Positions 31,652 through 56,226 of a stretch of DNA of 61,330 nt are shown here, in pieces (the stretch's first letter is position 1; each line of letters opens with the position of its first letter). The translations under genes and the position numbers were made by a program. The DNA is taken from positions 1 to 61,330 of the IMG/VR virus record IMGVR_UViG_3300003154_000789; one strand, given 5' to 3'. The notes beneath the pieces were generated by a model that made no database searches, was not told the DNA's origin, and worked only from the letters and a program-made list of their open reading frames with translations. This DNA comes from a virus.

Positions 31652-31657
31652 TTAAAT

Positions 31658-32518: not shown

Positions 32519-32539
32519 TAAATTTTATAGGAGATTATT

Positions 32540-33113: not shown

Positions 33114-33131
33114 CAACAAAGGAGAAGGAAG

Positions 33132-33443
33132 ATGAAAGACATTAAATATATGACAGCAGAAGATTTTAGAAAATTAGGTTTCTTGCAAGAAGCCAATAGA
33201 AAATTCTTCCATCCTCTTGGTCTTGCTCTTGAAGTTATTACTAATAAGAATGGAGATGAAGAACTGGGAGGCATTTGGGATTATCGTAAGGACCCAGAAG
33301 GAAATTTCTTTGGTAATGGTATGATTAAACAAGATAAGATTGATTTTGTAGAAAATCTTCGTCAATCAAAGATAGAAAATCGTATTGCTCTTCAAGATGA
33401 ATACAATATTAAGGTAGATGACGAAGGGATACAGGTTATATGA
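33132..33443 (+). CDS. hypothetical phage protein
   Basis: LQEANRKFFHPLGLAL, IWDYR.DPEG; GGAG RBS. Confidence 0.65.
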   Translation: MKDIKYMTAEDFRKLGFLQEANRKFFHPLGLALEVITNKNGDEELGGIWDYRKDPEGNFFGNGMIKQDKIDFVENLRQSKIENRIALQDEYNIKVDDEGIQVI

Positions 33444-33447
33444 ATAT

Positions 33448-33537
33448 GGTGGAGGTGGTGGAACTGGTAGACACGCTAGGCTGTGGCCCTAGTGTCCTTA
33501 ATAAGACGTGCGGGATCATATCCCGTCCTTCACCCCA
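33448..33537 (+). tRNA. tRNA-His(GTG) with long variable arm
   Basis: G-1:C73, GTGGAGG/CCTTCAC, CTAGG-CTGTGGC-CCTAG, CCA. Confidence 0.85.
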
Positions 33538-33558
33538 TATTTCAAAGGAGGAAACTAT

Positions 33559-33726
33559 ATGCTAAAAATTGATATGAATGCGATGGCAAATCGTGTAGCT
33601 GTAGGAGAGGGTGGTAGAGTAGAGGTAAATATTGCTCAAATTAAAGAGGTGCTTAAAGTATTTCTTGAAGAGCTATCTAAATATGAAGACGAAGAAATTT
33701 TAGAAGTTGTTAAACGACACAAATAG
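33559..33726 (+). CDS. small hypothetical protein
   Basis: AGGAGG RBS. Confidence 0.55.
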   Translation: MLKIDMNAMANRVAVGEGGRVEVNIAQIKEVLKVFLEELSKYEDEEILEVVKRHK

Positions 33727-33805
33727 GAGACATAATAATGTACAGAATAGTTTTATCATGTGGAGGTCTTGCCAAGTAAGGTCCCTTTAAAGGAGGTGAT
33801 ATTAC

Positions 33806-33991
33806 TTGGAAATCAAGACCCATAAATCTGGAAAGAAACACCGTAAATACGGTAGGTCTTCCAGAAGGCCATCGCACCATCGTTACAATTTAGAACAACG
33901 ATGGATTAAAAACAAAGCCCGTCGTATCAAGAAACATAATAAAGCAGTACTTAAAAAACTTGCCAAAAAACTTGCTCGTATGGGCATATAA
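33806..33991 (+). CDS. small highly basic protein
   Basis: AGGAGGTG RBS, TTG start, K/R-rich. Confidence 0.55.
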   Translation: MEIKTHKSGKKHRKYGRSSRRPSHHRYNLEQRWIKNKARRIKKHNKAVLKKLAKKLARMGI

Positions 33992-33998
33992 CTTTAAC

Positions 33999-34024
33999 AG
34001 GGCCTTTCGGGGCCCTAAAATTTC
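33999..34024 (+). terminator. Putative intrinsic terminator
   Basis: AGGGCC-TTTCGG-GGCCCT hairpin, weak U tract. Confidence 0.4.
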
Positions 34025-34027
34025 TAC

Positions 34028-34055
34028 TTGACAAATAGATAATGTGTATTATATT
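34028..34055 (+). promoter_or_regulatory. sigma70-type promoter
   Basis: TTGACA-16-TATATT before tRNA-Glu. Confidence 0.7.
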
Positions 34056-34067
34056 ATATATACAAAC

Positions 34068-34141
34068 GCTCCAATAGACGAAAAGGATAAGTCATCAGGC
34101 CTTCAACCTGAAGAGTGCCAGATCGTACCTGGCTTGGAGCA
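34068..34141 (+). tRNA. tRNA-Glu(TTC)
   Basis: GCTCCAA/TTGGAGC, TCAGG-CCTTCAA-CCTGA. Confidence 0.85.
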
Positions 34142-34153
34142 CAAATATTGGAT

Positions 34154-34240
34154 AGGATGTATATGGGCATCCTTCCTTGATGAGAGGACCCATAAAAGCC
34201 TCTTATCAGAACAGGGCTATAGGGATATCACTGTAGTCCT
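34154..34240 (+). ncRNA. Candidate three-hairpin kissing-loop RNA
   Basis: Three hairpins; loops TATGGG and CCCATA are complementary. Confidence 0.45.
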
Positions 34241-34243
34241 ACT

Positions 34244-34316
34244 GGTCTTCTAGCTCATCTGGTAGAGCAACGTACCGATAATGCGTAGGTGCCAAGTTCA
34301 AGTCTTGGGAAGACCA
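34244..34316 (+). tRNA. tRNA-Ile(GAT)
   Basis: GGTCTTC/GAAGACC, ACGTA-CCGATAA-TGCGT. Confidence 0.9.
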
Positions 34317-34358
34317 CAGAGTATAACGTAGTATAACACTTAGAGGAGGACTACTAAT

Positions 34359-34577
34359 ATGAAACTGTATATAGTAAAGCTTTCCGAACAAGTATCTTAC
34401 ATTAAAGTAAGAGATATCGCTAATAGAATAGACTCAGATAGTACGATTACTGTAATAGAACATAGTAAAGTATATGAATTCCAAAGTAAAAAGGTAGCAG
34501 ACACGATAGCCAGAGTGTTCAATGGTGTAGTCGAAGCCATTGAATATAACATCAACAACAATTATATGCAGGTATAG
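34359..34577 (+). CDS. hypothetical protein
   Basis: GAGGAGG RBS. Confidence 0.55.
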   Translation: MKLYIVKLSEQVSYIKVRDIANRIDSDSTITVIEHSKVYEFQSKKVADTIARVFNGVVEAIEYNINNNYMQV

Positions 34578-34729
34578 TATATGGGAAAATGGTTTGTCGG
34601 CCCCAAAACAAAGTGTCCATATTGTGGTGAATACAAAGTTCTATATAGTAGAACGGTAAAAGGAAAACTTATAGGACGCTGTAGTCATTGTGAAAATTGG
34701 CTTTATACAATAGCAAAGGAACTATAAAT

Positions 34730-35716
34730 ATGGAAGTGTATAGAACTAAAGATGGGCTAGTTAGTAAATATGTTCATGACGATGGTTCAGAAACATCTAT
34801 TAAATCTGTGAGTTCATGTGGAAACGTTTTAAATAAGGCTACTGGTAAGATAGAACCAGTAGAGGTAGATAGAAATAAGTTTTCCGTTTTTATTTCTTCG
34901 TCAGTTGGTTGTAATCTTGGATGTAAGTTTTGCTATCTAACAACAAAGAAATATCCATACCATAAACTTTCTATGCATAGGATATTTAATAATGTAAAGG
35001 AAGCACTTACTGCTGAGGTTGCAGAAAAACCACAACTTCGTAAGAAATATATGAAACTTAGTTGGATGGGTATGGGAGATGCTTTTCTATTAAATCCAAT
35101 TGCTTTAAGAGAAGTATCGAATAAGATATTAACCTGGGCAGTAAGAGATAAGGGAGTAGCAGTAGGAGTAGACGGTATTGATATTGCTACAATGCTGCCT
35201 GTGAGCAGACCTGGTTGGCCACATCATCTGGCAGCACTGAATGATGACTGCTTTGGTTATAGGATTAATCCACATAGTAAAGATAGAAGTAATCTGAGAA
35301 TATTTTATTCCTTACATAAATTTAGTGATAGAAAAGATATTATGCCAGCTAGTAGATATAATGATGTGGCAAACGATTTACAACTACTGAATCAATTTAA
35401 ACAATGGTATGGTGTAGATATTATTCTTCATCAGTTATTTTTGGAAGGTGTGAATGACACCGAACAAGACCTAAGACAAATAAAATCAGGGATTGATTGT
35501 TTAATTCCTGATACTGAACTTCGTATATTAAGATTTAATGAATGTAAGGACTCTATATATAAAGAGTCTAGTAGGTTTGATGAGTTAGTTAAAATGTATT
35601 CAGAGGCATTACCTAAAGTTAAGTATCAGATTTCAGCGGGATCAGAAATTAAAGCGGCCTGCGGAATGTTCTTAATGGGAGAGAAACCTAACACCTATGA
35701 ATTTAAGGAATTTTAA
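34730..35716 (+). CDS. RlmN/Cfr-like radical SAM RNA methyltransferase (divergent)
   Basis: ISSSVGCNLGCKFC, MGMGD, YSLH, GVND, IKAACG. Confidence 0.7.
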   Translation: MEVYRTKDGLVSKYVHDDGSETSIKSVSSCGNVLNKATGKIEPVEVDRNKFSVFISSSVGCNLGCKFCYLTTKKYPYHKLSMHRIFNNVKEALTAEVAEKPQLRKKYMKLSWMGMGDAFLLNPIALREVSNKILTWAVRDKGVAVGVDGIDIATMLPVSRPGWPHHLAALNDDCFGYRINPHSKDRSNLRIFYSLHKFSDRKDIMPASRYNDVANDLQLLNQFKQWYGVDIILHQLFLEGVNDTEQDLRQIKSGIDCLIPDTELRILRFNECKDSIYKESSRFDELVKMYSEALPKVKYQISAGSEIKAACGMFLMGEKPNTYEFKEF

Positions 35717-36352
35717 ATGTATATTAGAAGTATATCGTATAACCAGCATCAGATTATTAAATGGATATTACAATTACATTGCGAAGGGGATATAGAACTA
35801 GATCCTACTTATAGTACTGGAGGGTTCTATAAACAAGGGGTAAAGGAACCTAAATATAAATTTGATATATACCCACAAAAGCCCGGTGTAATACAGGCTA
35901 ACGCGGAACATTTACCTATTAAGGATGAGTCTATTAGCACAATGATATTGGATTTCCCTTTTCTAGCCACCAAGGGGCCATCTTTATTGAATAAAAAAGA
36001 AGGACAGAATGAAACAATTAAAAGATTTGGATGTTATCCCACAGAGAAAGAGTTATTTGCTCTTTTTAAAAATTCATTAAAAGAAGCATACAGAGTTTTA
36101 AAGAAGAATGGGGTTTGCATTTTCAAAATTCAAGGGAAGATTAGCTCTTCGAAGCAATATTTAAGTCATCACTACGTTATGAACTACGCCGAACAGGTTG
36201 GGTTTTATATAAAAGATGAATTTGTTCTTTTGGCCAAAAACAGACTCACACCTAAATGGCAAATTGATGGGCAAAGGAATGCCAGGAAATACCATTCTTT
36301 TTTTTTGGTTTTTCAAAAGAAGACTGTAAATTTAGGAATTGAAAAATGCTAA
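35717..36352 (+). CDS. Putative DNA methyltransferase
   Basis: LDPTYSTG, DFPF (DPPF-like), EAYRVLK.NG. Confidence 0.6.
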   Translation: MYIRSISYNQHQIIKWILQLHCEGDIELDPTYSTGGFYKQGVKEPKYKFDIYPQKPGVIQANAEHLPIKDESISTMILDFPFLATKGPSLLNKKEGQNETIKRFGCYPTEKELFALFKNSLKEAYRVLKKNGVCIFKIQGKISSSKQYLSHHYVMNYAEQVGFYIKDEFVLLAKNRLTPKWQIDGQRNARKYHSFFLVFQKKTVNLGIEKC

Positions 36353-37182
36353 TGAAAGTTTGTAAGATATGTGAAATTGAGAAATCAATAAATGATTTCT
36401 ATAAACGAAAAGATAGTGGTAACTGTCGATTGGAATGTAAAATCTGTGCTATTAAACAAAGAAAAGAATGGGCTCTTAAAAATAAAAATAAAGCGAAAGA
36501 AAACAAAAAAGAATGGTATTTAAAGAATATAGAAGTGGTAAAGAAGAAACAAAAAGAGTATCGTATCGAAAATAAAGATACGATAAAAAATAAGCATAAA
36601 GAATATCATAGTACACACATATGTACACAGGACAAAAGATTAAAAAATATAGCAACTATAAAATGGAAAAATTCTTTAGCATCGTATGAAACATATACGT
36701 ATAAATTGAAGTATGCTGACGAGGTCAAAAATAATAATGGGTTGTTGGAGGTTAGATGCACTTATTGTAACAAATGGTTTACACCAACAAACTCACAGAT
36801 ACGAAATAGAATTGGTGCTCTTATAGGTTCAGGAAGAGGAGAACAACGCTTGTATTGTAGTGATGAGTGTAAGAAATCTTGTCCAACTTTTGGTCAAAAG
36901 AAATATGAAAAAGGGATTAGACTTGCAACTTCTAGGGAAGTTCCGGCTGAATTTAGAAAGATAGCTTTAGAGGATAGAAACTATACATGTGAAAAGTGTA
37001 ATTCAATTGAAGATGGTCTCCATGTACATCATATTGAGGGTTATACAGAGCAACCAATGTTCATGGCAGACTTATCTAATGTGATAGTGGTATGTAAAAA
37101 GTGTCATAGTAAAATACATAAGCAGAAAGGTTGTAATTACCAAGATTACCAATGTGCAAATAAAAAAGAAGAGGGTACTTGA
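36346..37182 (+). CDS. HNH endonuclease
   Basis: CKIC..CKIC N-terminus; DRNYTCEKC, HVHHI, NVIVVCKKCH. Confidence 0.85.
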   Translation: MLMKVCKICEIEKSINDFYKRKDSGNCRLECKICAIKQRKEWALKNKNKAKENKKEWYLKNIEVVKKKQKEYRIENKDTIKNKHKEYHSTHICTQDKRLKNIATIKWKNSLASYETYTYKLKYADEVKNNNGLLEVRCTYCNKWFTPTNSQIRNRIGALIGSGRGEQRLYCSDECKKSCPTFGQKKYEKGIRLATSREVPAEFRKIALEDRNYTCEKCNSIEDGLHVHHIEGYTEQPMFMADLSNVIVVCKKCHSKIHKQKGCNYQDYQCANKKEEGT

Positions 37183-37206
37183 CAAATAAGAAAGATGTAT
37201 TATATT
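37179..37206 (+). promoter_or_regulatory. sigma70-type promoter for tmRNA
   Basis: TTGACA-16-TATATT. Confidence 0.7.
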
Positions 37207-37262
37207 AGTATTAACAAGTTATAAATAATAATGTAACTTGTATATAAGTAAGAAACACATTC

Positions 37263-37658
37263 GGGGATGACAGGTTTCGACATGGCGGATGTGACTATAG
37301 GCTCGATGCGTAGACTGTACAATACTACGTTAAAAATTGTATAAAAATAAATAACGAATCTATGTTAAACTATGCTCGTGAACAACTTACCGATGGTATT
37401 AGTGTCGTTAAATCTATGAGCAGATATATGGAAGCTGTCTAATAAACAATTCCATGGGGCTTTGCAGAGGCCTAGCAACAGAATTCTGTAGTTCGTTTTA
37501 AATTTTTAGTTGTGAGTATAAAGTTTCGTAGTTCTTTTTTGCAAAACTACGTGGTGGAAGGCGACGGTTAAAGCCGTTGGCCCCTTGTTGTTAGTATTAT
37601 CATCGTCAACCCTATAGAACCAACGTTGTGGACCCCGGTTCAATTCCGGGCATCTCCA
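37263..37658 (+). ncRNA. ssrA: tmRNA
   Basis: GGGGATG-ACAGGTTTCGAC 5' end, GGAC-CCCGG-TTCAATT-CCGGG-CATCTCC-A 3' end with G3:U; internal tag ORF ending TAATAA. Confidence 0.92.
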
Positions 37659-37671
37659 AGGAGTAGTAAAA

Positions 37672-37742
37672 GGTCTGTTGGTGAAATGGTATCACAGAAG
37701 ACTGTCGATCTTCAATCAGGGGATCAATACCCCTACAGACCG
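37672..37742 (+). tRNA. tRNA-Asp(GTC)
   Basis: GGTCTGT/ACAGACC, GAAGA-CTGTCGA-TCTTC, G73. Confidence 0.85.
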
Positions 37743-37753
37743 CAAGTAAGTAT

Positions 37754-37822
37754 GGGTCACGGACCGGCGTCCAGACGGGCCTCCAAAGCCCATCGTGCGG
37801 GGTTCAACACCTCGGTGACCCG
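37754..37822 (+). tRNA. tRNA-Trp(CCA)
   Basis: GGGTCAC/GTGACCC, GGGC-CTCCAAA-GCCC, short D arm. Confidence 0.75.
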
Positions 37823-37853
37823 CAGGTAGTAAAAATTAAAAGGAGAACTATAA

Positions 37854-38525
37854 ATGAACTTCACAATACTAACCCCTGGTGATTGCCCAGTGATGTATGA
37901 TAAGTCTGATGCCACAGCTTCTAATTTTGGTGGCAGCAGGGCTGTTACAGCTGATATAGTAAAAGAACCACAATTTGATAAGCATTTAGATACAAGTTAT
38001 ATAACAGTTTCTGGCGGGGCAACAGTAAGTGGTGTCATTATTCCAGGTACTGGGTTATATAAAGTTTTTAGCTTTACAGAAGAAAGTTTGCCTGATTACG
38101 CTAAAAATATGTTTATCCAGGAGCGTTATGATACATATAATGCCTTAGTAGCATCTGGCATAGAAAACATGTATATAATACCAGATAGTTTTGATTTTTA
38201 TTTTCCTGGAACAGGTGATTATACCCATCGTTATGGTAACGCCCCATCCATAGAAGAAAATCCAGTAGATACTGCCATCAGAGATATAGATGATATGTCT
38301 AATCTTGAAGAACGTAAGAATGATTTCTCTCAGCAAGAGATAAGAGCAGATGTTCAGAAAGGTAATGAGGGGTTAGGTATTCAGTCTGATCCAGAAAATC
38401 GTCCTCGTATGGATGAAGGAACTGATGCAGTTCAAGTACCGAGTTCAGATTTCCGCGAAGAGATGAAGAAAAATAATAGATGGTCATTTGGTAACTCAGC
38501 ACGTTATGAAGGGGAAATAAGTTAA
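37854..38525 (+). CDS. hypothetical protein
   Basis: AAGGAG RBS. Confidence 0.65.
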   Translation: MNFTILTPGDCPVMYDKSDATASNFGGSRAVTADIVKEPQFDKHLDTSYITVSGGATVSGVIIPGTGLYKVFSFTEESLPDYAKNMFIQERYDTYNALVASGIENMYIIPDSFDFYFPGTGDYTHRYGNAPSIEENPVDTAIRDIDDMSNLEERKNDFSQQEIRADVQKGNEGLGIQSDPENRPRMDEGTDAVQVPSSDFREEMKKNNRWSFGNSARYEGEIS

Positions 38526-38627
38526 TGACGTAGATTTCTGGTTTTACATAGATTAGGGGTCCTCCTTATATTTAGCTTAATTTTATTAATATATAAACAA
38601 TTCAACATAATATAAGGAGAATACAAA

Positions 38628-38930
38628 ATGAGATACACAAAATACCCTATGATGAAAGATGAACTTAAACAATTAGCAAAAGAAATTCGTGAGTGCAAGA
38701 GCGTCCGTAAACAAGATGAAAGAGAAAAATTAAATTTAGAACTGTATCAAGTTCAATATAATATTGATAAACGAAAAGATATATTTAGGCACACACATAT
38801 AGCATACTGCATGCTCAGAGGTAAAACATATGAGCAAATTGAAAATCACTGTAGAGTTCTCCCAAACTTTAACAGGATAAACAAGTTGATGGAAGAGAAT
38901 GAACAAAAAACTATTTGTGCTAGTGCGTAA
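38628..38930 (+). CDS. hypothetical phage protein
   Basis: RHTHIAYCMLRGKTYEQIE. Confidence 0.65.
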   Translation: MRYTKYPMMKDELKQLAKEIRECKSVRKQDEREKLNLELYQVQYNIDKRKDIFRHTHIAYCMLRGKTYEQIENHCRVLPNFNRINKLMEENEQKTICASA

Positions 38931-39195
38931 AAATTTGTCAAGAAGTCAGCAAGCAGTTCAAGCGGGTCACGCAGTAGCAGAATATCTGCTCCGTGGCCCG
39001 TTTACGTTTTGGGAGAACGGAACTCTTGTTTACTTAGAAGTAAAAGATGAGATAGTCCTTAGACAATGGGAGACATAGATTTCTTCCGCGGGCTATAAGA
39101 CAGTACCTTTCTATGAACCAGATAGAAATAATGAGATGACAGCATTTGCTTCAGAAGGTTGCGATGATCTTGTAAGAGAATTAAAATTACTTTAA
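38899..39195 (+). CDS. Pth2-like protein with in-frame TAG at 39076-39078 (readthrough candidate or pseudogene)
   Basis: LFVLVRKNLS..QAVQAGHAVAE before the TAG; FYEPD.NNEMTAFA...LKLL after it, same frame. Confidence 0.7.
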
Positions 39196-39208
39196 GAGGT
39201 GAGGTGTC

Positions 39209-39400
39209 ATGTATGATGAAGAAGACTTAAAGGATTGCATAGACTTAGACTTAGAATGGTTAAAAAAAGAACTTGAGGACTTGACAATAGAGGAAAGATG
39301 TCTTATATTGGATGAGTACATAGAGCGGACACAGAAATATGGTGTAGGTATACTGGAATATAAGGCTTTTGTTGAAGCATTTGATAAATTGGAGGATTAA
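39209..39400 (+). CDS. acidic hypothetical protein
   Basis: GAGGTG RBS. Confidence 0.5.
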   Translation: MYDEEDLKDCIDLDLEWLKKELEDLTIEERCLILDEYIERTQKYGVGILEYKAFVEAFDKLED

Positions 39401-39405
39401 AAGGA

Positions 39406-39762
39406 ATGTCATATAATATAACGAGTTGGAAGACTAAGGAAATATCTAATTTACTAATACCATTAAAAGTTATAGCAGATCTACCTTATACGTATATTGA
39501 AGTTGATGGTGCAAGTGTGAGTGCCAAAGGACTTTCTGAAGGTTTCAAACTTGAAGGAAATTTAATAGATAACAATATTGTAGAAGTAACCAAAATAAAA
39601 ACTTCTGATGATGGTAGTGGTTCAACTTGGCAAGATTTTATTAATATGCTTAAAGAAAGTAGAGGTATACTTGTTGCTATTCAAATTTGGGAGGGCGGAG
39701 ATAGCCTTTCTAAACTTATAGTAAATAATGGTGAAGTAATTGATGAGCCATATGAGTTGTAG
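39406..39762 (+). CDS. hypothetical protein
   Basis: WEGGDS motif, RBS. Confidence 0.6.
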   Translation: MSYNITSWKTKEISNLLIPLKVIADLPYTYIEVDGASVSAKGLSEGFKLEGNLIDNNIVEVTKIKTSDDGSGSTWQDFINMLKESRGILVAIQIWEGGDSLSKLIVNNGEVIDEPYEL

Positions 39763-39773
39763 GGAGAATAGTA

Positions 39774-39953
39774 ATGGAAATAGAAAAGGCAAGAGATAGA
39801 ATCCAGGCTATAGAAAAAAACATAACAGATCTTATCCGTGATTTCGAAAAGGAATATGATATGTGCATCAATAGAGTAGGTCTTGAACGTACTTATGCAT
39901 TGGGGGATAGGTTTGGGTATTTATGTCGGGTCAACTTTGATATTAGGTTGTAG
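39774..39953 (+). CDS. 59-aa hypothetical protein, paralog of next ORF
   Basis: GGGAG RBS; ends VNFDIRL. Confidence 0.55.
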   Translation: MEIEKARDRIQAIEKNITDLIRDFEKEYDMCINRVGLERTYALGDRFGYLCRVNFDIRL

Positions 39954-39963
39954 GAGAATAGGA

Positions 39964-40143
39964 ATGGATATATTAGAAATGCAGAAGAAAAAGGCGGTAG
40001 TGGAACATGCAATAGATGAACTTCTAAATACTTTTGAAGAAGAAACTAATATGAGAGTATACGATATAGATTTCGATCGAGGGATAGAGATGACACAGCG
40101 TGGTAGTTTTATTTTTAATGTTAATTTGGATATAAGATTATGA
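39964..40143 (+). CDS. 59-aa hypothetical protein
   Basis: AGGAG RBS; ends VNLDIRL. Confidence 0.55.
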   Translation: MDILEMQKKKAVVEHAIDELLNTFEEETNMRVYDIDFDRGIEMTQRGSFIFNVNLDIRL

Positions 40144-40751
40144 TAGATCCTTCAAATATAACTAACTATAATTTGACAGAAGATGAATTAGAGGAGCACA
40201 TACTTTTCTGGGTAGCAGCTGCTGGAAAGAATGGTAGAACTGCAGCAAGACGCCTTGAAGTATTTCTTACTATGATTACCTATAATGGTATGAGCCCTTT
40301 TGATGCTTTAAAAAATCAATATCTATATGATGTTAAAGAAAAAGGTGACCCTACTCATGCTACTATGTCTGAACTTATGAAGCTGGCAGGGATAGGTTGT
40401 TATACTAATAAGAGTAAAACCTTTACTGAATTATCTCATGCACCTATAGATTTAAGTACATGCTCCACTGAAGAATTAGAAAAGATATATGGTATTGGAC
40501 CAAAGACTGCTAGATGTTTTATCCTTCACTCACGTAAAGGTGCAAGACTATCTGGTCTTGATACACATATGCTTAAACATTTAAGGGAAATGGGAGTAGA
40601 AGGTGTTCCTAAGTCTACGCCTTCTTCCAAAAAGAAATATATGATATTGGAACAAGAAGTTTTAAGGTTAGCAGACGAGGCAGGAATGAGCCCCGCTGAT
40701 TATGATTTAAAAATTTGGAACAAATACTCGACAAAAGTTCTTGACAAATAG
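40140..40751 (+). CDS. HhH-GPD superfamily DNA glycosylase-like protein
   Basis: IYGIGPKTARCF HhH, LDTH, YDLKIW. Confidence 0.7.
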   Translation: MIDPSNITNYNLTEDELEEHILFWVAAAGKNGRTAARRLEVFLTMITYNGMSPFDALKNQYLYDVKEKGDPTHATMSELMKLAGIGCYTNKSKTFTELSHAPIDLSTCSTEELEKIYGIGPKTARCFILHSRKGARLSGLDTHMLKHLREMGVEGVPKSTPSSKKKYMILEQEVLRLADEAGMSPADYDLKIWNKYSTKVLDK

Positions 40752-40768
40752 AAGTTATGTATTATCTT
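40741..40768 (+). promoter_or_regulatory. sigma70-type promoter
   Basis: TTGACA-16-TATCTT. Confidence 0.7.
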
Positions 40769-40821
40769 ATATATAAGTAAGGGAAAGGCAAATTTCAATA
40801 ACAGTACAAGGAGAATGTAAT

Positions 40822-41550
40822 ATGCAAGAAAAAATGATTAGTATTAATGACAAAGGAAGAAAAACCAATCGTAGTTCTTTAGCATTCTATAACAAACAAA
40901 AAGAATTGCTAACTGTATCTGCTTTAAAAACTCCAATCGAACAGCTAGTGGCTACATATGGTTATGATGTTGTAGCTAACGTGCTGAGCACATTTAAAAA
41001 GTTTCCATATAGAAATAGTCAATGGTTTGACCAAGATAAATATCCTTCAGGTAAATCTTTTAGTGAAGCCTATGTAAAATTTATGAGAGAGGAAGTGTTC
41101 ACCGATCTCATTGAACATAAAGGTTCCACATCATACGATGACGATTTATCAAAAATTAGAATAGAACAGAAAGCTATACGAGCTCTTGGACCCAAAGCGT
41201 TAGGTTCCTTCTCTGATAGAGCACAGATTAAAGCTGAGTTTAAAAATACTTCTAGGACTTGGCAGCAGGTTAAACCAGATCTTTTTGATATGCTTTTAGG
41301 AGCCGTTGTTTATCTTGATCGTACAGACTATTATCTTATTCACAGATCTGATATGTGTTTGACCATACATGATGATTCTCCCAATAAAGTTAAACTTGGA
41401 AAACAACATGCTAAGGGAGAAAGTTGGGGACAAGTTAATCCCTTCAGACCATTAACAGAATCTTTTCTATTTGCTACATCAACTGAAACAGAGCCTTTGG
41501 AAAATGTGAAATTACTTGACTTTCTAAATAAACTCAATGTTGGAATTTAA
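40822..41550 (+). CDS. hypothetical protein, possible restriction endonuclease
   Basis: YDD...IEQKA (PD-(D/E)XK-like); coupled to methyltransferase. Confidence 0.4.
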   Translation: MQEKMISINDKGRKTNRSSLAFYNKQKELLTVSALKTPIEQLVATYGYDVVANVLSTFKKFPYRNSQWFDQDKYPSGKSFSEAYVKFMREEVFTDLIEHKGSTSYDDDLSKIRIEQKAIRALGPKALGSFSDRAQIKAEFKNTSRTWQQVKPDLFDMLLGAVVYLDRTDYYLIHRSDMCLTIHDDSPNKVKLGKQHAKGESWGQVNPFRPLTESFLFATSTETEPLENVKLLDFLNKLNVGI

Positions 41551-42982
41551 GAATATACAAGAAAGAAAAGAGGTTTTGGGCCAGTTTTTCACTCCTGAAG
41601 AACTGGCTTTAAAACTTATAGAAAATTTAGACATCACCACTGATCTAATAATTGAACCTTCATTCGGTTCGGGTAATTTTTTGACAGCTTTGAGTTCAAA
41701 ATTTTCTATAGAAAAGATTATAGGTATAGAATTGGATGAATTCTATTATGATTTGGTTAAAAATAATGAGAAATTCAACAACATGAAGTTGCTAAATGAA
41801 AATTTTTATGACTTCTCTATCTGTGATTTTTCAAAATCTATAACTTTTGTAGGGAATCCTCCCTTTAGAACACCAGCATGGTCCTTAAAAACACATAATA
41901 AATATGTTAAAATGTTATGTAAAAAATATGACATTCATGGTATAAGGGAGGAGGCAATATTTTTTATAGTTAAGACCTGTGATATTCTAATTGAAAATGA
42001 TATACCTGGTTATATATATTATATAGTACCATCTACCATTATCAAAAATAATACCAAATTTTATAAGTCGTTCATGAAGTTTTTAATAAAATACTTCTTT
42101 ATTTCCATAAGTACTATTGAGAAGAATCAATTCGACAACGTGTCCCAAGATTTAATATTCTTACAGTTGGAAAAGAAACAAGATTTAAAAAAGATACAAG
42201 AATATATAATGGTAGATACAGAAAAGATAGATCTAAAAGAATATATATTTGGAAAGGATGACCTTATACCACATCAAGAAATTTTCAAGAGATCATACTT
42301 AGGTTCAGTTCCTTGTGAGAGTATATTTATATCTATTTCTGGTGAGCCTATAGAACATTTCAGACAGCGTCTTATAAAACTTTTTTATTGTAATATTAAA
42401 AACAATGAGGAACTATTATCATTATTATCTTTTGATGGAAAACGCTATCTTAAAGTTTTGGGGTCTGGTTCAGAAGCAAATGTGGATTCAAAATTAGACA
42501 TAATAACAAATTATATAAATGAAATTAAACGAAGAATAGATCTTAATATTTTTAGCGATAGTAATAATTATAAACCTATAAGACATAGAAAGGAAGATAG
42601 GTATTACTTTAGACATAGAGATCTTAAGGGTTTAAGTTTTGTTTATGAGTTAAACCCAAATCCAGGACAGTCTTTTTATTTTACTGGTAATCCATCACAT
42701 TCATCCACAGATTACTTTGGATATTGTTCTTATGATGTGACACGAAATTCTAGTCCAGGGGCGTGTAGAACAATTCCTTTAGAGGACTTGGAGGAGAATT
42801 TAGTAGAGGAATTTAAGGTTTATTGGAACGAAAATACTAATGGATTAGATTATAAATACATCTTTGATTATATAATTTTTATATCTAAAACACAGTGGTA
42901 TAGAGATATCAAGAAAGAAAAAAGACGTATGTATTTTTCTCTTCCAAAGAAGTTTAATAGATTATTTCTTGAGAGTACTTGA
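41537..42982 (+). CDS. N6-adenine DNA methyltransferase
   Basis: LGQFFTP, IEPSFGSGNF, GIELD, GNPPF. Confidence 0.85.
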   Translation: MLEFKNIQERKEVLGQFFTPEELALKLIENLDITTDLIIEPSFGSGNFLTALSSKFSIEKIIGIELDEFYYDLVKNNEKFNNMKLLNENFYDFSICDFSKSITFVGNPPFRTPAWSLKTHNKYVKMLCKKYDIHGIREEAIFFIVKTCDILIENDIPGYIYYIVPSTIIKNNTKFYKSFMKFLIKYFFISISTIEKNQFDNVSQDLIFLQLEKKQDLKKIQEYIMVDTEKIDLKEYIFGKDDLIPHQEIFKRSYLGSVPCESIFISISGEPIEHFRQRLIKLFYCNIKNNEELLSLLSFDGKRYLKVLGSGSEANVDSKLDIITNYINEIKRRIDLNIFSDSNNYKPIRHRKEDRYYFRHRDLKGLSFVYELNPNPGQSFYFTGNPSHSSTDYFGYCSYDVTRNSSPGACRTIPLEDLEENLVEEFKVYWNENTNGLDYKYIFDYIIFISKTQWYRDIKKEKRRMYFSLPKKFNRLFLEST

Positions 42983-43006
42983 CAAATAGTAGTTATGCAT
43001 TATATT
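42979..43006 (+). promoter_or_regulatory. sigma70-type promoter for suppressor tRNA
   Basis: TTGACA-16-TATATT. Confidence 0.7.
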
Positions 43007-43027
43007 ATATGTATGAAAAACGGATAT

Positions 43028-43103
43028 GGCTCAGTAGCTAAGTTGGCGTAGCGGATGCCTCTAAAACATTGAAACATGGGTTCGAGTCCCATCTGAGCCA
43101 CCA
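43028..43103 (+). tRNA. Amber suppressor tRNA (CTA)
   Basis: Canonical register GGCTCAG-TA-GCTA..TAGC-G-GATGC-CTCTAAA-ACATT-GAAAC-ATGGG-TTCGAGT-CCCAT-CTGAGCC-A-CCA. Confidence 0.82.
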
Positions 43104-49542: not shown

Positions 49543-50430
49543 TTATACTGTAGGATTATGTACCCACAGAAGCATAGCACGCTTTATATTTACTGGATTT
49601 GTACGTTTAAATTTAGTAGCTTCATAACGCTGAATTACCGGATGTTTAGTCGAACCAGTATATACACCACTTAAGTAGTCAATAAGAATATTGTCCACCA
49701 CGTTATACGCCTTTATATAATCGCCCATTTCAGCCGTCCAATTAGGCAGCAGCTGATCGATATCACTGTTGGTAATACCCAAACCATCGGTAGGCACGGC
49801 ATTTGCACATCTCAGTACGGGTTGTCCAATGACGTCTGCCATACCAAATACTTCAGTTTTCCAAAGCTCCTGAATTAATCCAAGATCCCCCACATCTCCA
49901 TGGAGAGTCCAAAATCCAAGATAGTATTCTGTAAGGTTATCTGTTGATAGAACAAGTCCTTTCTGCTCTTGGGCTTTATTATACAAGAAGATCATTCGAG
50001 TACGAGCTTTTATATTACCCATTCGAATCTTTTCTTCATGAGTCAACATCTTCCCATCAATACCTTGGATATACTTTTCATACAGAAGTGAGTCAACACC
50101 TCTAAGAATACCAAGAAAGGTTTCAGCCAGATTTACTTCCGCAAATTCATCACAGTATGTCCTACCAACAATATCTGCTCTCTCTATCTCCTCCTTTTTG
50201 TTGCTTAAGATCTTTAAGCTGTATCCAGAAAGTGTTATCTCCCGACCTTCCTTTTTCAAACCGTCACAAATTTTTCTGGCAAGGGCGGCTATAACAGCAC
50301 TATCTACCCCGCCAGAAATACCAAGAACAAGTGTTTTAATATTCGAGTTGTCTCGCAAGTATGAAATACCTGCATTGACAGCTCCACTTACCATGAATTT
50401 ATACTCTGAAGAAATCTTTGAAGATTCCAT
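49543..50430 (-). CDS. nadE: NH3-dependent NAD+ synthetase
   Basis: GISGGVDSAV, GNIKARTRM, TDNLTE..LGFWTLHGD, PTDGL. Confidence 0.9.
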   Translation of the reverse strand: MESSKISSEYKFMVSGAVNAGISYLRDNSNIKTLVLGISGGVDSAVIAALARKICDGLKKEGREITLSGYSLKILSNKKEEIERADIVGRTYCDEFAEVNLAETFLGILRGVDSLLYEKYIQGIDGKMLTHEEKIRMGNIKARTRMIFLYNKAQEQKGLVLSTDNLTEYYLGFWTLHGDVGDLGLIQELWKTEVFGMADVIGQPVLRCANAVPTDGLGITNSDIDQLLPNWTAEMGDYIKAYNVVDNILIDYLSGVYTGSTKHPVIQRYEATKFKRTNPVNIKRAMLLWVHNPTV

Positions 50431-50440
50431 AACATTCTCC

Positions 50441-51079
50441 CTATTTATACAGTTCATGTTCTACAATGTATTCATGAATGGCAACTAATAATCCCTTTGG
50501 TTTATTCTTCTTTTGGTGTTCCCAATTGTTGTGATAGTCTTCCCGAATCTTTGATGAAGCATTCTGTCCACCATTTTCTCCCAATATGAACACATTTGTG
50601 GTTTGTTCAATCCAAATATGTGAATTTGAAAAACACCAGTCATGGGGTCCATGAATGAATCCTGGTCTTTTAACAACCACAAAAGGTATTGTCTTCAAAA
50701 GATTTCTACTATTTCTCCATTCTCTAATCCTACTAGCTTGATCAGAGCCTATCACATAATAAAATTCTCTATCAGGATGTCTTCGTATAAGTTCTATTAT
50801 AACGGCATAGGCTCCAGCTTCATTTGCCATTTCTATTTCAGTTGTGCATATACTGGAGCATGGACCTAAATAGTTCACCACATATTTAAGCATGGCTATT
50901 CTGTGTTCTGGGCTGGTGAGTTTCTTTTGGCCAAAAGCATCTGAATAACAAGGAAGGAACCATAATTCTGCTGGACAGTTGGAAAATCTTTTGTGTCCTA
51001 ACACAGTGGCTGCTGTATTTATATGACTTTTATGTGGTGGATCAAATGCTCCGCCGAATAATAGAGTTTTTATCTTCAT
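50441..51079 (-). CDS. nadD: Nicotinate-nucleotide adenylyltransferase
   Basis: FGGAFDPPHKSH, HRIAML, IGSD, W, RPG, SSKIR. Confidence 0.88.
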   Translation of the reverse strand: MKIKTLLFGGAFDPPHKSHINTAATVLGHKRFSNCPAELWFLPCYSDAFGQKKLTSPEHRIAMLKYVVNYLGPCSSICTTEIEMANEAGAYAVIIELIRRHPDREFYYVIGSDQASRIREWRNSRNLLKTIPFVVVKRPGFIHGPHDWCFSNSHIWIEQTTNVFILGENGGQNASSKIREDYHNNWEHQKKNKPKGLLVAIHEYIVEHELYK

Positions 51080-51080
51080 C

Positions 51081-52274
51081 TTACCCCGCTATCTTTTCTT
51101 TAACAACTTTAATCAGGTAGTCTAAAAATTCTGGGTCCTCACACATACCCTTCCCTGCACTATCACTTATCTTTGCTACAGGTCTACCATTACACTCTAT
51201 CGGTTTCATAACTACCTGTGGGGCTTCAAATCCACAATCATTGGTAAGATAAGTACCTATACCGAAGGATACATTTATCTCATTGTGAAAACGTCTGAAG
51301 AGATCTAAAGCAACCTCAAAAGTAATGCCATCGCTGAATATGGCAGCTTTGGTACGTGGATCAATCCTTAATTTCTTGTAATGGGCAATCAATTTTTCAG
51401 CCCACCAAATCGGGTCCCCAGAGTCATGGCGACAACCATCAAATAGTAGAGCAAAGTAGCGATCAAAGTCTTTTAGGAAAGCATCAAAGCCTATTGTATC
51501 AGACAGGGCAATTCCCAATTCTCCACGGTATTCATTTGTCCAAGCTTGAAGTGCTGCTGACTGACTATCAGCCAAACGAGGACCGAGCTGTTGATGAACT
51601 TGGAAAAGCTGATGAGCCATGGTTCCTATAGGTTTGACACCATATTTTTTAGCAAACATAACATTGCTGGTGCCAACAAAATATTTACCATAATTTTCCA
51701 CAATGAAGCCGATCAGTTCATCTTGCCACTCTACATCAGCACGACGTCTTGTACCGAATTCTGCGAACTTGAATGCCTGGTCCTTATGAAGACTTGCATC
51801 TAGCATGGTAAACTTATCCTTGAGCCTTTTACGGGCTTCAGGAAGCCATATGATCTTGGATGTGGAATTTTCGGTGTAGAGTTGGCTTACAATCGAAAGA
51901 ATTGGCTCTTCAAATGGTATAGTTGTGAGCCATGGTCCATCAACTTCAATAACTAGTACCCCGTTCACATTGCGGATTTTGATGTAAGCCCTATTCAATT
52001 GAAACAATCTGAGATATTCAATAAAATCTCGTTTTAAATAGGGAATGCTGGATAGATACTTGAGTTCGTCTTCAGTGAATCTTAAAGTGCATAGATGATC
52101 CACTTCTTTCTTTACTCGACCTACAAAATCATCCATGGAAATACGAAGCTTCATTCTATCCCAGTTTCTCCATTTGAATGCATAGCGAACCCATGCACCT
52201 GAACACTGATGAAGGGCAAGCTGCATCATTGAGAAGGTATAAAAATCACTGTCTGTTAGACTATTTATAATCAT
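51081..52274 (-). CDS. pncB: Nicotinate phosphoribosyltransferase
   Basis: DSDFY..SM, EFGTRR, GTSNV, GTMAH, RHDSGDP, FSDG, FGIGT, KISD..GK. Confidence 0.93.
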   Translation of the reverse strand: MIINSLTDSDFYTFSMMQLALHQCSGAWVRYAFKWRNWDRMKLRISMDDFVGRVKKEVDHLCTLRFTEDELKYLSSIPYLKRDFIEYLRLFQLNRAYIKIRNVNGVLVIEVDGPWLTTIPFEEPILSIVSQLYTENSTSKIIWLPEARKRLKDKFTMLDASLHKDQAFKFAEFGTRRRADVEWQDELIGFIVENYGKYFVGTSNVMFAKKYGVKPIGTMAHQLFQVHQQLGPRLADSQSAALQAWTNEYRGELGIALSDTIGFDAFLKDFDRYFALLFDGCRHDSGDPIWWAEKLIAHYKKLRIDPRTKAAIFSDGITFEVALDLFRRFHNEINVSFGIGTYLTNDCGFEAPQVVMKPIECNGRPVAKISDSAGKGMCEDPEFLDYLIKVVKEKIAG

Positions 52275-52276
52275 AG

Positions 52277-52429
52277 CTATCCTTTCACTTTTAGACTGTC
52301 TCGTAATCGTTCTTCAATATACTTGGTATTGTTTACATACACTTGCTGGTCTTCTGCATTTGTTTCCATACCTTGTATTATCTTACGGACGACTAGGTCA
52401 GCCTTATCTTTTTCGGTTTTTTGTTTCAT
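52277..52429 (-). CDS. small hypothetical protein
   Basis: MKQKTEK... with AAGGA RBS. Confidence 0.4.
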   Translation of the reverse strand: MKQKTEKDKADLVVRKIIQGMETNAEDQQVYVNNTKYIEERLRDSLKVKG

Positions 52430-52445
52430 ACTCGATGGTCCTTCT

Positions 52446-52748
52446 TTAAGATCCATCGGCTGTACATGACTTCCCGCAGATGGAACATTTACCAGTCTCT
52501 TCCTCACTATCATTTTCAATGACATAAGCCTTTTTCTTTTCACGAAGTTCTTTTCTTGTACTGGCAAACCACGGTACACGAGATACGATTATGGCTGAAT
52601 CACCAAAGTGTTCACATGATTCAATCGTGAACATCTTTGTACTGATTGCCGAGCAACGTGGACAGAAGTCGTAATGTTCTTTAAACCTCACAACTTGTTC
52701 ATGACCACAAAAATAACATGCTTTATCTACGATTCCGAATTCTTCCAT
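52446..52748 (-). CDS. Zn-finger hypothetical protein
   Basis: CYFC, CPRC, CSIC; GAGGAG RBS. Confidence 0.55.
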   Translation of the reverse strand: MEEFGIVDKACYFCGHEQVVRFKEHYDFCPRCSAISTKMFTIESCEHFGDSAIIVSRVPWFASTRKELREKKKAYVIENDSEEETGKCSICGKSCTADGS

Positions 52749-52773
52749 GACAACTCCTCGATTTTAAAAATAG

Positions 52774-53106
52774 TAGGTGGTGTGCTGTTACGCCAAATGC
52801 CTGTCTTCTACCGCAAGATTCTCACCCCCACCACACATATAACCAATCTTGCAAAACGCAATGTGTAGCCGTGCTTCTCAAAGCACGCTTGGGCACGACG
52901 GAAGATTTCTTATCCGCCGAGGCAGTGCATATACGGAGACAGGTTTGTCGCACCCATAGTGTCGATACGTACAACTGCCGTCTCCTTAAATGTCATCTTT
53001 TGCAATGATGGCGGGCAACTCATTATAGGTACCGAATATTTGTTATTGGCGTAACATTGTATTCGGCAGGGCGAACCTGGCTGCTTCTAAGCCAACCTCC
53101 CACCTA
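52774..53106 (-). ncRNA. Structured RNA mimicking the 23S rRNA L11-binding domain (H42-H44) with insertions
   Basis: UAGGUGG-GA-GGUUGGCUUAGAAGCAGCCA ... CCUAUAAUGAG ... GGCGUAACAGCAC-A-CCACCUA. Confidence 0.75.
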
Positions 53107-53157
53107 TCTTAATTGAATTTCAGTCGTCTATTATGGCGACGATGACCAAGTTAAAGG

Positions 53158-53694
53158 TTAAATAATTTCAGTGCCATAAAGAGCGGACATCCTTTTAATG
53201 GCCATATTGTCCATTTCCTGATCGAAATCGGCGACACAATTCTGATGAATCACTGTTGGATAATCACGATTGGCTAGATCTCCAACTGTATCCATTACAC
53301 AGATACTTGTGCATACTCCAGCTACCTCAATCACAGAGTTTCCTGGCTTCAGCCCGAAGTGTACTTGAAGAGTGAATTCCAGTGAGGTATTGTAGAAACC
53401 ACTGTATCTGGTTTTTGTGACAATGGCATCCGTTCCTTGTGTAAAATTCAACTCATCGATAATTCTTGCTCCATATGTATTAATGACACAATGTTTTGGA
53501 AAACGTTTAAACTCAAGATCATCTTCTGTATGGGCATCAGACAAGAAGATAACTGGATAACCATTTGCACGATATTCTTCAATTCTTGCTTTAACAAAAG
53601 GCACAATTGCCTGAGCCGTAGGGCCACAAAATAATGCCCCATCCTGTTTGATAAAATCGTTTAACATATCAACTACGAGTAAAGCCTTTTTCAT
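53158..53694 (-). CDS. pncA: Nicotinamidase (isochorismatase family)
   Basis: VVDMLNDF..GAL, DAH, FPKHC, KTRYSGF, GVCTSICV; located in NAD gene block. Confidence 0.82.
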   Translation of the reverse strand: MKKALLVVDMLNDFIKQDGALFCGPTAQAIVPFVKARIEEYRANGYPVIFLSDAHTEDDLEFKRFPKHCVINTYGARIIDELNFTQGTDAIVTKTRYSGFYNTSLEFTLQVHFGLKPGNSVIEVAGVCTSICVMDTVGDLANRDYPTVIHQNCVADFDQEMDNMAIKRMSALYGTEII

Positions 53695-54506: not shown

Positions 54507-55271
54507 TTAACTAATAAGTTTATTTATCTCACCGACTGGCAAAGATTTCAATTTTGCCATGGCATCAAAATAAATACCCTTACTCAACTCTGAAAATCCT
54601 GGAGATGAATTGATCTCTATGAAATAGATTTTCATACTGTTATCCACAATTAAATCCACCGCACCAAAAGACATTCCCATAACTTTAAGAATCTTTTCTG
54701 AAATATCTTTTGCATCAGTGAATACTTTGTGGCTATTGGGCGATTGTACGCTTTGAAAGTGCCCTCCCTGATGAAAATTCCAAGCTATTTGGTCGGAGGG
54801 ACCCACACGTTTATGAACAGCCCAATCTTTTTTAGATATCCAGGAAAATGCATGAACACGAAGTTCATATTTCCTTTCTTTTACCATCTTCTGATAATAC
54901 TTTCCAACAATTTTGCCACGCCCCCTTGCGGCGATGATTCCATTACCCTGACTTGAGTGTACTCTTTTTTCAATCCAATCAGAAAGTTTAGCTGTTTCAG
55001 GGAGGGATAACCTCGTTTCAGGTACAGTTATCCCTTTATTTTCTGCATCTTTTACAGAGGAATACTTAGAACGACCAACATGACCATTGATCATAGGTAC
55101 TTTTATTGCTGGCGGGTATTTTCTGAAAAATAAATCAAGTCTTTCGCCACTTACCCCGTAGTTTATAATGGCATCAGCTTTTTGTCCAACATATCTGCGT
55201 ATACCAACATTGTTTATGATTTCTCTACAGGATTTGGATGCCCTATTTCCAATGATACATATGTTAGTCAT
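54507..55271 (-). CDS. ATP-grasp (RimK-like) ligase
   Basis: QGNGI, YQK, ELRVH, FGAVD, IEINSSPG. Confidence 0.75.
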   Translation of the reverse strand: MTNICIIGNRASKSCREIINNVGIRRYVGQKADAIINYGVSGERLDLFFRKYPPAIKVPMINGHVGRSKYSSVKDAENKGITVPETRLSLPETAKLSDWIEKRVHSSQGNGIIAARGRGKIVGKYYQKMVKERKYELRVHAFSWISKKDWAVHKRVGPSDQIAWNFHQGGHFQSVQSPNSHKVFTDAKDISEKILKVMGMSFGAVDLIVDNSMKIYFIEINSSPGFSELSKGIYFDAMAKLKSLPVGEINKLIS

Positions 55272-55284
55272 AGTTGAATACTCC

Positions 55285-55671
55285 CTAGTCCTCAAACAAC
55301 GGTCTACGTCCTTTACAGATATCATCTATGTACTGTTCGAAAGGACGCAGTCTTCTTTTCTCTCCATGTCGTGATTGTAATGAGGAAAGTTTCATAACTT
55401 GTTCCCAATTCTTCTTATCGGTATCCTCATCTATATCAACTCCTAGATCCAGATCAATCTCACGATCAAACTCTTCGTGGAGCTCCTCTGCCAAAGCGAA
55501 AGCGAGACCCATTTCTTCTGGCCCCATTTTGTCAAATAAATCCCGATCTTGCTCTCTCCTGTTTGTATCAATAATCTGGTCATAGGTGTCATACAGATAA
55601 TCTTCTCCACCCATTCTCCCATCATCAATACCTTCGTAACCTTCATGACTACAGTGGTCAATACCAAACAT
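55285..55671 (-). CDS. acidic hypothetical protein
   Basis: Intact ORF in operon orientation. Confidence 0.55.
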   Translation of the reverse strand: MFGIDHCSHEGYEGIDDGRMGGEDYLYDTYDQIIDTNRREQDRDLFDKMGPEEMGLAFALAEELHEEFDREIDLDLGVDIDEDTDKKNWEQVMKLSSLQSRHGEKRRLRPFEQYIDDICKGRRPLFED

Positions 55672-55686
55672 AAATTCATCACCTCT

Positions 55687-56226
55687 TTATAAATTTCTAC
55701 TTAGTCTCAAGAATATTAACATTTTAACGATTCTGTCCACCAAATATTTTTGCGTCTCATCCATTTCACGGTCAAGATTTTCTATGATATACTGAGTCTC
55801 TTTGATGTAGCGGTCAACAAAATGGGTTGGAATACAAATTTCCTGCAATCCTACGATATTGCTTAGACGATCACAAAGTTTTATTAGAAAAGCCTTATCT
55901 GACATAGCATTGATTTTTCTTGATAGATAAACAGCTTTTCCATAAATGGCTATTTGGGAGTCATCATTTGTTACTTCTCCTACCAGTCCCATAACTATCC
56001 CGCCAAATTTTTTTCCTAGTTCGTCCAAGGTTGTGGAAGTATTTTCAACCACATCATGACAAAGAGCAGCGATGTACTCATCATCAGAAGCTTTCCCATC
56101 TGTAGCCTCCCATAATAGCTGTGCCGTTTCTTCTAAATGAATTAGATAAGGTTTGTTGGTGAACTTTCGCTTCTCATCATGATGACGATCTGCAACAAAG
56201 TTATGTGCTACCATCAACCTATTCAT
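55687..56226 (-). CDS. HD-domain protein, SpoT/Mesh1 hydrolase-like
   Basis: H..RK..PYLIH, AALCHDVVEN, IKLCDRLSN. Confidence 0.8.
   Translation of the reverse strand: MNRLMVAHNFVADRHHDEKRKFTNKPYLIHLEETAQLLWEATDGKASDDEYIAALCHDVVENTSTTLDELGKKFGGIVMGLVGEVTNDDSQIAIYGKAVYLSRKINAMSDKAFLIKLCDRLSNIVGLQEICIPTHFVDRYIKETQYIIENLDREMDETQKYLVDRIVKMLIFLRLSRNL

Follow-up and report, generated by a model that had tools for sequence, protein, structure and literature searches.

A structured phage RNA predicted to rebuild the GTPase-associated centre of 23S rRNA, and the phage RNA family to which it belongs

A 333-nt non-coding RNA of a large groundwater phage, structured and probably stand-alone, belongs to an extensive family of phage RNAs as one of its divergent members. 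The RNA lies at 52774-53106 on the minus strand of the stretch of DNA analysed here (the window), which is 61,330 nt long and makes up bases 1-61,330 of a 141.5-kb IMG/VR record (IMGVR_UViG_3300003154_000789). Judged from its sequence, the RNA brings its two ends together into a copy of the GTPase-associated centre (GAC) of 23S rRNA, with the upper part of H42, with H43 and H44, and with the turn at 1082-1086. The GAC of bacterial 23S rRNA (top of H42, H43 and H44; E. coli positions 1051-1108) is the 58-nt domain that binds uL11 and thiostrepton. We give a probability of about one in two to the reading that the RNA is a free imitation of this factor-docking site, probably in a particle with uL11, and draws something away from the GAC of the ribosome.

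An earlier note on this DNA had proposed that a non-coding RNA at the same position, interrupted by inserts, reproduces the uL11-binding centre (H42-H44) of 23S rRNA. That proposal is borne out: all the pieces listed are present, a model built without the window matches the RNA end to end, and its core closely resembles real 23S GACs.

Core of the RNA

Read on the minus strand, the RNA opens with UAGGUGG (53100-53106), the 5′ strand of an H42 equivalent, and ends with the 3′ strand CCACCUA (52774-52780), assigned by sequence and helix covariation. The two strands pair with each other, and all 8 pairs covary both in the family and in the sub-family of the window's copy. Next to the 5′ strand lies a piece equivalent to 23S 1056-1077 (53078-53099, assigned by identity to 23S GACs), with G1056, the 5′ strand of H43, the loop and the upper 3′ strand, including GGUUGGCUUAGAAGCAGCCA. 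Its landmarks are U1060 at 53095, A1067 at 53088 and G1071/C1072 at 53084/53083. The H43 hairpin, with loop 1065-1073 (UUAGAAGCA) on the G1062-C1076 stem, is identical to real 23S rRNA at 53093-53079. After a first insert, CCU-AUAAU-GAGU (53018-53029) supplies the equivalent of 23S 1079-1090, that is C1079-U1081 at the base of H43, the junction A1082-U1086 (AUAAU) and G1087-A1088-G1089-U1090. After a second insert, the segment at 52781-52797 carries a UUUG linker, the H44 hairpin GCGUAACAGC (G1091-C1100; 52793-52784) with its GUAAYA loop and A1095 at 52789, and A1101-C1102-A1103. The 3′ signature motif of the family, UUUGGCGUAAYAGCACACC, is present here at 52797-52779.

The nucleotides of the tertiary contacts (U1060/A1088, the 1082-1086 pair, and G1071 and C1072 with H44 pairs) are all present, the 1082-1086 pair being A-U. 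As far as can be read from the letters, the window's RNA retains both the tertiary-fold nucleotides and the two factor-facing loops (A1067 and A1095). Once both inserts and the UUUG linker are taken out, a 57-nt core remains, which is identical to four real 23S GACs at 44-48 of 57 positions (77-84%). One of these comparators, the E. coli reference L125 (strain ChlosBP-23-1, NZ_CP048603.1), is an atypical operon variant in its H42 part and was therefore used only as one of the four. Its H42 strand of the GAC (23S ~1045-1056) reads GCCGUGGGAUG, as against the commonly quoted GCCAGGAUG; the difference comes either from an unusual operon or from a faulty assembly.

The closing helix sets the RNA apart from an rRNA segment. 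Rfam shows no rRNA around the RNA, so that H42 does not run on as it does in rRNA, and the helix is 7 bp long. Since UAGGUGG/CCACCUA covaries freely in the family, it is self-paired, not paired with rRNA. Matches in E. coli (5,426 genomes) were confined to annotated 23S rRNA. The inserts, compared with E. coli 23S rRNA, gave chance 8-12-mers only and no other rRNA-like stretch. A 15-nt match to one further locus (L103) lies outside rRNA and was set aside as chance.

Family model and covariation

IMG/VR was scanned for exact occurrences of the 17-mer UGGCUUAGAAGCAGCCA, which lies within 53078-53099, and at least 118 loci were found. Only a handful of the loci listed are real 23S rRNA. Most others listed have the H43 copy, junctions of the UUUAAAGAGU type, a variable insert of ~70-345 nt, UUUGGCGUAAYAGCACACC and then the complement of the sequence upstream of H43.

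An alignment of 27 short members (A1) was prepared without the window, and its core structure was written from the rRNA model. This structure is 96.8% paired across the 27 members. In the closing helix H42, 8 of 8 pairs show double changes; the pair 1058-1080 is UA in 12 members, GC in 8 and AU in 5, and the tertiary pair 1082-1086 is UA in 12, CG in 9 and AU in 3. The covariation score is 0.557, against 0.131 for shuffles and at most 0.161 for slid partners. A covariance model of the core, with a search of phages for covarying homologs, had been suggested as a check on the original observation, and such homologs were found. The covariance model (R1), built from A1 and so with the window excluded, aligns over its whole length (model positions 1-194) with the window's RNA, at 52772-53108, scoring 50.9 bits (E 1.4e-13). 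This is its sole match in the window and in the whole 141.5-kb record.

The 17-mer preselects for H43, and the rescan that we take as unbiased used the 3′ motif alone; R1 finds 59 members in the 95 new loci obtained in this way. Conservation in this set is 100% for U1060, C1072, A1084, A1085, G1087 and A1088, 98% for G1071 and 82% for A1067. Position 1061 is U in 47%, A in 37% and G in 12%, and it is variable in rRNA too (PMC6239185). A1095 is kept in all members examined, while positions 1096 and 1097 are relaxed. Together with the double changes in H42, the six invariant nucleotides agree with the earlier claim that loops are conserved while stems are compensated.

The family has more than 150 members in total, from 95 nt to more than 400 nt in length, and the inserts vary widely between them. 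These numbers bear on the most trivial account, that the RNA is a non-functional captured fragment of a host 23S gene or a chance likeness. The 19-nt identity to 23S rRNA found in the window's RNA would suit such an origin. Against it stand the covarying self-closing helix, the size of the family and the E-value of the model match; furthermore, A1101, the UUUG linker and the insert site are family signatures not found in rRNA. We regard this account as next to impossible, and a dead 23S rRNA fragment in particular is excluded by the helix covariation, the model match and the conserved tertiary nucleotides in the unbiased set.

Several members have features of their own. The minimal ones, of 95 nt (L145 201-295 and L171 1568-1662), contain a 26-nt hairpin insert and a variant H43 (GGAUUGAAAGCGUCC). 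Two R1 matches fall within ~1 kb on one contig in L167 (3767-4086 and 4725-4942) and in L203 (549-646 and 890-983); the L203 pair may be halves of one longer RNA, as the first is without the 3′ motif and the second without the H43 sequence. In L062, a family member has a group I intron (Rfam RF00028, 55.2 bits; 7483-7677, minus strand) a few hundred bases away.

Distribution and novelty

Unannotated members are present in cultured phages: Pseudomonas phage pf16 (KU873925, ~29.4-29.6 kb; 113.8 bits), where the member sits between tRNA-Asn and tRNA-Pro, Aeromonas phage 4_4572 (MK813943, ~75.08-75.37 kb; 99.4 bits) and Cronobacter phage GAP32 (JN882285, ~289.5-289.8 kb; 78.7 bits). These members were found by blastn with a shorter typical member; blastn of the window's whole inter-ORF gap against GenBank phages gave no match. 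The cultured carriers infect Pseudomonas putida, Aeromonas hydrophila and Cronobacter, and the hosts of carriers overall span many phyla. The 3′ motif occurs 57 times in 185,579 prokaryote species (one genome each), and many of the contigs concerned are from metagenome-assembled genomes. The family is phage-specific and rare in cellular genomes.

A tRNA gene lies within 500 nt of 36 of 67 members, and all 158 tRNAs within 2 kb are on the strand of the RNA. Same-strand placement with tRNAs is typical of the family but not defining.

The family is new, in that it has no Rfam 15 entry and no published description that we found. Neither the window's gap, searched at gathering thresholds and again with E as high as 10, nor any of 15 member loci matched an Rfam 15 family, and a literature search that included the 224-motif paper found no description of a GAC-mimic RNA family. 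The first impression that the RNA belongs to no named family agrees with both searches.

Inserts and sub-family of the window's copy

The window's copy is an atypical, divergent member in which two phage-specific domains are set into H43 and H44.

Insert 1 takes the place of U1078. It had been put at ~47 nt; the insert is there, but by count it has 48 nt (53030-53077), which form a short hairpin AGG-UUCG-CCU followed by a longer one, CCGAAUA...UAUUCGG. It is shared with L132 and, in a shorter version, with L126/L131 only; the other family members have unrelated hairpins at the U1078 site. Both hairpins show compensatory changes (CCGAAU/AUUCGG to CAGAAU/AUUCUG, and AGG/CCU to AGAC/GUCU). By replacing U1078, insert 1 may engage A1077 in the H43 internal loop, near the U1060-A1088 contact, and could change or block uL11 binding in the sub-family of the window.

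Insert 2 is a multi-helix domain in H44 (52798-53017). Its length of 220 nt is as first estimated, and it is closed, as also claimed, by UGCC (53017-53014) and GGCA (52801-52798). This extra helix after GAGU is a family trait, and it covaries in the family and in the sub-family. The invariant motifs of insert 2 are CCCGCC, GGCAGU...ACUGC(C), CCGUAU, CCCAA, GUGUUU, UGGGxGxGA and GGUAGAAGAC. Two pairs of conserved complementary segments cross other helices, which makes pseudoknots possible.

The window's inserts matched no other member in the first family set. The sub-family was found by a 3′ junction scan, which gave L126, and by a scan of one metagenome, which gave six more loci; all are covariance-model matches. 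The architecture of insert 2 is common to the window and five other lineages (L132, L126/L131, L129, L127/L133 and L130). In the sub-family alignment (A3; 8 sequences from these 6 lineages) RNAalifold gives 69 pairs, of which 38 have a compensatory change. Relatives differ by 1- and 2-nt indels together with compensatory stem changes, and indels of these sizes mark the region as non-coding. In the window's clade the mimicry of the loop is less than absolute, since L126 (6478-6801) and L131 (2364-2687) have the H43 loop UUAGGGG instead of UUAGAAG, with G at 1061.

Two insert motifs recur elsewhere or recall rRNA. The motif CACC-CC(N)GNRA(N)GG-UAAGG, a small tetraloop hairpin just before the return to H44, occurs in many members, among them L008, L043, L041, pf16 (L123 1496-1688) and 4_4572 (L124 1495-1782); the window has GGUAGAAGAC at the matching place. 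The 379-nt member of L027 (3689-4067, minus strand) has in its insert UAGUACGGGAGGA, which is one mismatch from the sarcin-ricin loop of 23S rRNA. No sarcin-ricin-like motif was found in the window's inserts.

The inserts could themselves be the working part, the GAC fold, perhaps clamped by uL11, serving only as a scaffold that closes and stabilises the RNA ends. The wide differences between inserts, the conserved folded domain with invariant motifs in the window's insert 2 and the sarcin-ricin-like hairpin of L027 would fit this idea. The 95-nt members, whose insert is a 26-nt hairpin only, argue against it, as do factor-facing loops that are conserved beyond the needs of a clamp, and we hold it to be improbable.

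Locus of the window's RNA

The RNA occupies part of a 409-nt inter-ORF gap on the minus strand. Upstream is a pncA-like isochorismatase gene (53158-53694, minus strand); downstream is an ORF for a 100-aa zinc-ribbon protein (52446-52748, minus strand), after which come pncB, a nadD-like gene and nadE. The genes pncA, pncB, nadD-like and nadE stand in pathway order (49543-53694, minus strand) and supply, in a phage, the whole of NAD+ salvage by the deamidating (Preiss-Handler) route. A block of a SpoT/Mesh1-like HD_4 gene, a small ORF and a RimK-like ATP-grasp ligase gene is found at 54507-56226 on the minus strand; it is also present in L126 (4228-5963) and L131, just upstream of the RNA, with proteins 55-64% identical.

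An array of 21 tRNA genes (24821-43103, plus strand, with a CUA-anticodon tRNA at 43028-43103) is on the strand opposite to the RNA, and a tmRNA gene lies at 37263-37658 with the ARAGORN-predicted tag VSIKFRSSFLQNYVVEGDG. There is no tRNA gene within 1.5 kb of the window's RNA, which thus lacks the same-strand tRNA-array placement seen in the family.

A scan around the window's copy on the RNA strand found no sigma-70-type promoter and no canonical terminator. Because of this, and because it is placed inside a protein-coding gene block, the RNA may be made only as part of an mRNA, and it is probably cut out of a longer transcript. Two flanking elements are candidates for a part in this. A hairpin with the stem UCGUC/GACGA around GCCAUAAUA (53124-53142, minus strand) stands 18 nt upstream of the RNA; its 5-bp stem is compensated in relatives (CCGUU/GACGG in L132, UCAUC/GAUGA in L126/L131), and it may serve in processing or as a leader. 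The closing helix is directly followed by a U-rich tail, CUAUUUUUAAAA (52762-52773, minus strand), which could be a 3′ end or processing signal; a U-run is found there in L132, L126 and L131 too. Beyond this tail come the ribosome-binding site of the next ORF and its start, at 52748.

Gene order in L132 is that of the window: pncA, RNA, zinc-ribbon ORF. In L126/L131 the order is HD_4 (58% identical), ORF, RimK-like ATP-grasp (64% identical), RNA, an ORF like the zinc-ribbon ORF (o100b) and nadD. The more distant RNAs with the window's insert type (L129, L130 and L127) are 4-715 nt from tRNAs and not beside NAD genes. As these distant same-insert RNAs adjoin tRNAs and the synteny is confined to close relatives, placement in the NAD block is a trait of one phage clade, not of the RNA.

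This arrangement bears on the suggestion, also made in the earlier note, that the RNA is a cis-regulator of pncB-nadD-nadE. A local cis element of the NAD-salvage operon (one that regulates the downstream ORFs and pncB-nadD-nadE, acts as a stabiliser or marks a processing site) would account for a position after pncA and before the next ORF, all on one strand, where neither promoter nor terminator was found, and for a place upstream of o100b/nadD homologs in L132, L126 and L131 as well. However, the family overall, like the distant RNAs that share the window's insert, is found beside tRNAs, and a search of pncA neighbours gave a sole relative (56% identity), in a phage with no such RNA beside its pncA. 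The suggestion thus has little support, and a role of this kind is very improbable.

Gene partners of carrier phages

A uL11 gene was found in 0 of 48 carrier records, so any uL11 partner would be that of the host. HD_4 genes were found in 11 of the 48 records and in 4 of the 20 near-complete ones, counts that stand without a control set and come from a search of imperfect sensitivity, which missed an HD_4 gene of L126 that was found by hmmscan. At this frequency HD_4 is not an obligatory partner. Among 1043 ORFs around 124 loci there was no recurrent protein neighbour; the largest clusters, of 6-8 loci, are GIY-YIG homing endonucleases and TerD.

These counts bear on a sponge for uL11 or for uL10-bL12. 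Soaked up by the RNA, the protein that RelA needs would be missing from ribosomes, and the stringent response would be blunted in concert with the phage SpoT/Mesh1-like HD hydrolase. uL11 recognises exactly the GAC fold (PMC6239185), the carriers are without a uL11 of their own, the HD_4 gene is 2.6 kb upstream of the window's RNA, and the order HD_4, ATP-grasp, RNA is kept in L126/L131. That order is nevertheless kept among close relatives only and HD_4 was found in a minority of carriers, so the stringent-response link once drawn from the neighbouring HD gene finds little support. A sponge would also catch free uL11, not ribosome-bound uL11, and insert 1 may disturb the uL11 site. We consider the sponge, in this full form, unlikely.

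Proposed role

The GAC is an autonomous fold that is required for uL11 binding (PMC6239185). In the preferred reading, the RNA would fold like the autonomous 58-nt rRNA domain and be bound by the host's own uL11; the RNA or RNA-protein particle would then stand in for the factor-docking site outside the ribosome, soaking up something that otherwise acts on the ribosomal GAC. The ligand might be uL11 or stalk proteins in free form, a factor of translation or of the stringent response, or a toxin or defence effector directed at the GAC. Translation would in this way be protected or retuned during infection. The core would be the functional part, because 95-nt members exist, and the inserts would be accessory modules. 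A1067 and A1095 are conserved more than the fold itself would demand, which suggests a ligand that reads the surface facing the factors. What we say of the nature of this ligand is drawn by analogy with the ribosome, as no conserved protein neighbour was found in the 124 loci.

The last of these ligands corresponds to a decoy, in which surplus A1067/A1095 target loops would spare the ribosomes from a GAC-directed toxin, defence effector or thiopeptide. GAC-directed toxins exist: Tre23 ADP-ribosylates H44 around 1095-1098 and impairs the GTPase of EF-G (PMC8661411). The retention of A1095 in every member examined and of A1067 in 82% of the unbiased set would be expected of such a decoy; the tmRNA and 21 tRNAs of the phage point to heavy investment in RNA upkeep, a context that fits a phage defending its translation apparatus, and phage RNA mimics that neutralise host systems are exemplified by the ToxI mimic (PMC3475682). 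On the other side, the GAC is not a known target of any anti-phage system, the many-phyla host range suits a universal ligand better than a patchy toxin, and positions 1096 and 1097 are relaxed. Taken as a complete explanation the decoy is, like the sponge, a doubtful one; within the preferred reading, a uL11/stalk sponge and a decoy for a GAC effector are about equally likely, and scaffold and cis roles are less so.

A wider version of the preferred reading can be put forward tentatively, at somewhat under even odds. Phages of hosts in many phyla would make a free replica of the GAC, some adding a sarcin-ricin-type hairpin; with uL11 of the host recruited to it, the replica would either trap factors of translation or of the stringent response or serve as a decoy for a hypothetical class of host immunity aimed at the GAC, and would be the first viral copy of an rRNA functional centre. 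If the RNA works as proposed, viral mimics gain a copy of an rRNA functional centre beside tRNA mimics and guide-RNA mimics, and the RNA would point to an unmapped phage-host battleground centred on translation (uL11, the stalk, RelA or GAC-directed toxins). The idea is directly testable, since the family is present in cultured phages. The sub-family of the window, with its two conserved inserts, set against the 95-nt members offers a way to separate core from accessory function.

Comparison with known systems

The closest likeness is to the 23S GAC itself. Shared with it are the order of helices, an identical H43 loop, the 1082-1086 pair, U1060/A1088, the contacts of G1071/C1072 with H44, A1067 and A1095. 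Unlike the GAC, the phage RNA is free-standing, with a covarying closing helix of its own, and is not in any rRNA gene; it has A at 1101 and not U, a UUUG linker and an extra helix between 1090 and 1091, and the window's RNA has in addition the 48-nt insert at 1078.

The leader of rplJ (L10), Rfam RF00557, imitates part of the GAC region of rRNA. Ribosomal protein leaders such as this one are also RNAs that imitate, off the ribosome, a protein-binding site of rRNA, but they are cis-acting mRNA leaders of bacterial ribosomal protein genes and have only partial likeness to rRNA. For the window's RNA there was no match to RF00557 or other ribosomal protein leaders at E up to 10, and its neighbours are pncA and the zinc-ribbon ORF, with no ribosomal protein gene.

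T4 species 1 (rnaC) and species 2 (rnaD) are stable RNAs within the phage tRNA cluster, on the tRNA strand, and in this they resemble the family. Considered as relatives they were rejected as unrelated, the best model score in the T4 tRNA region being 4 bits.

GOLLD and ROOL (10.1101/2024.12.08.627333) are large structured RNAs of phages and prophages that are often beside tRNA genes. The family described here likewise consists of large structured phage RNAs that are often tRNA-adjacent. Its fold is unrelated to theirs, with no Rfam match, and GOLLD and ROOL do not copy an rRNA site.

The ToxI pseudo-antitoxin (PMC3475682) and the RNA anti-CRISPR rAcrIIA1 (10.64898/2026.06.03.729762) are phage RNAs that imitate a host RNA to divert a host protein. 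By analogy, the GAC-mimic RNAs would follow the same concept with a different RNA imitated, the diversion being in their case a proposal.
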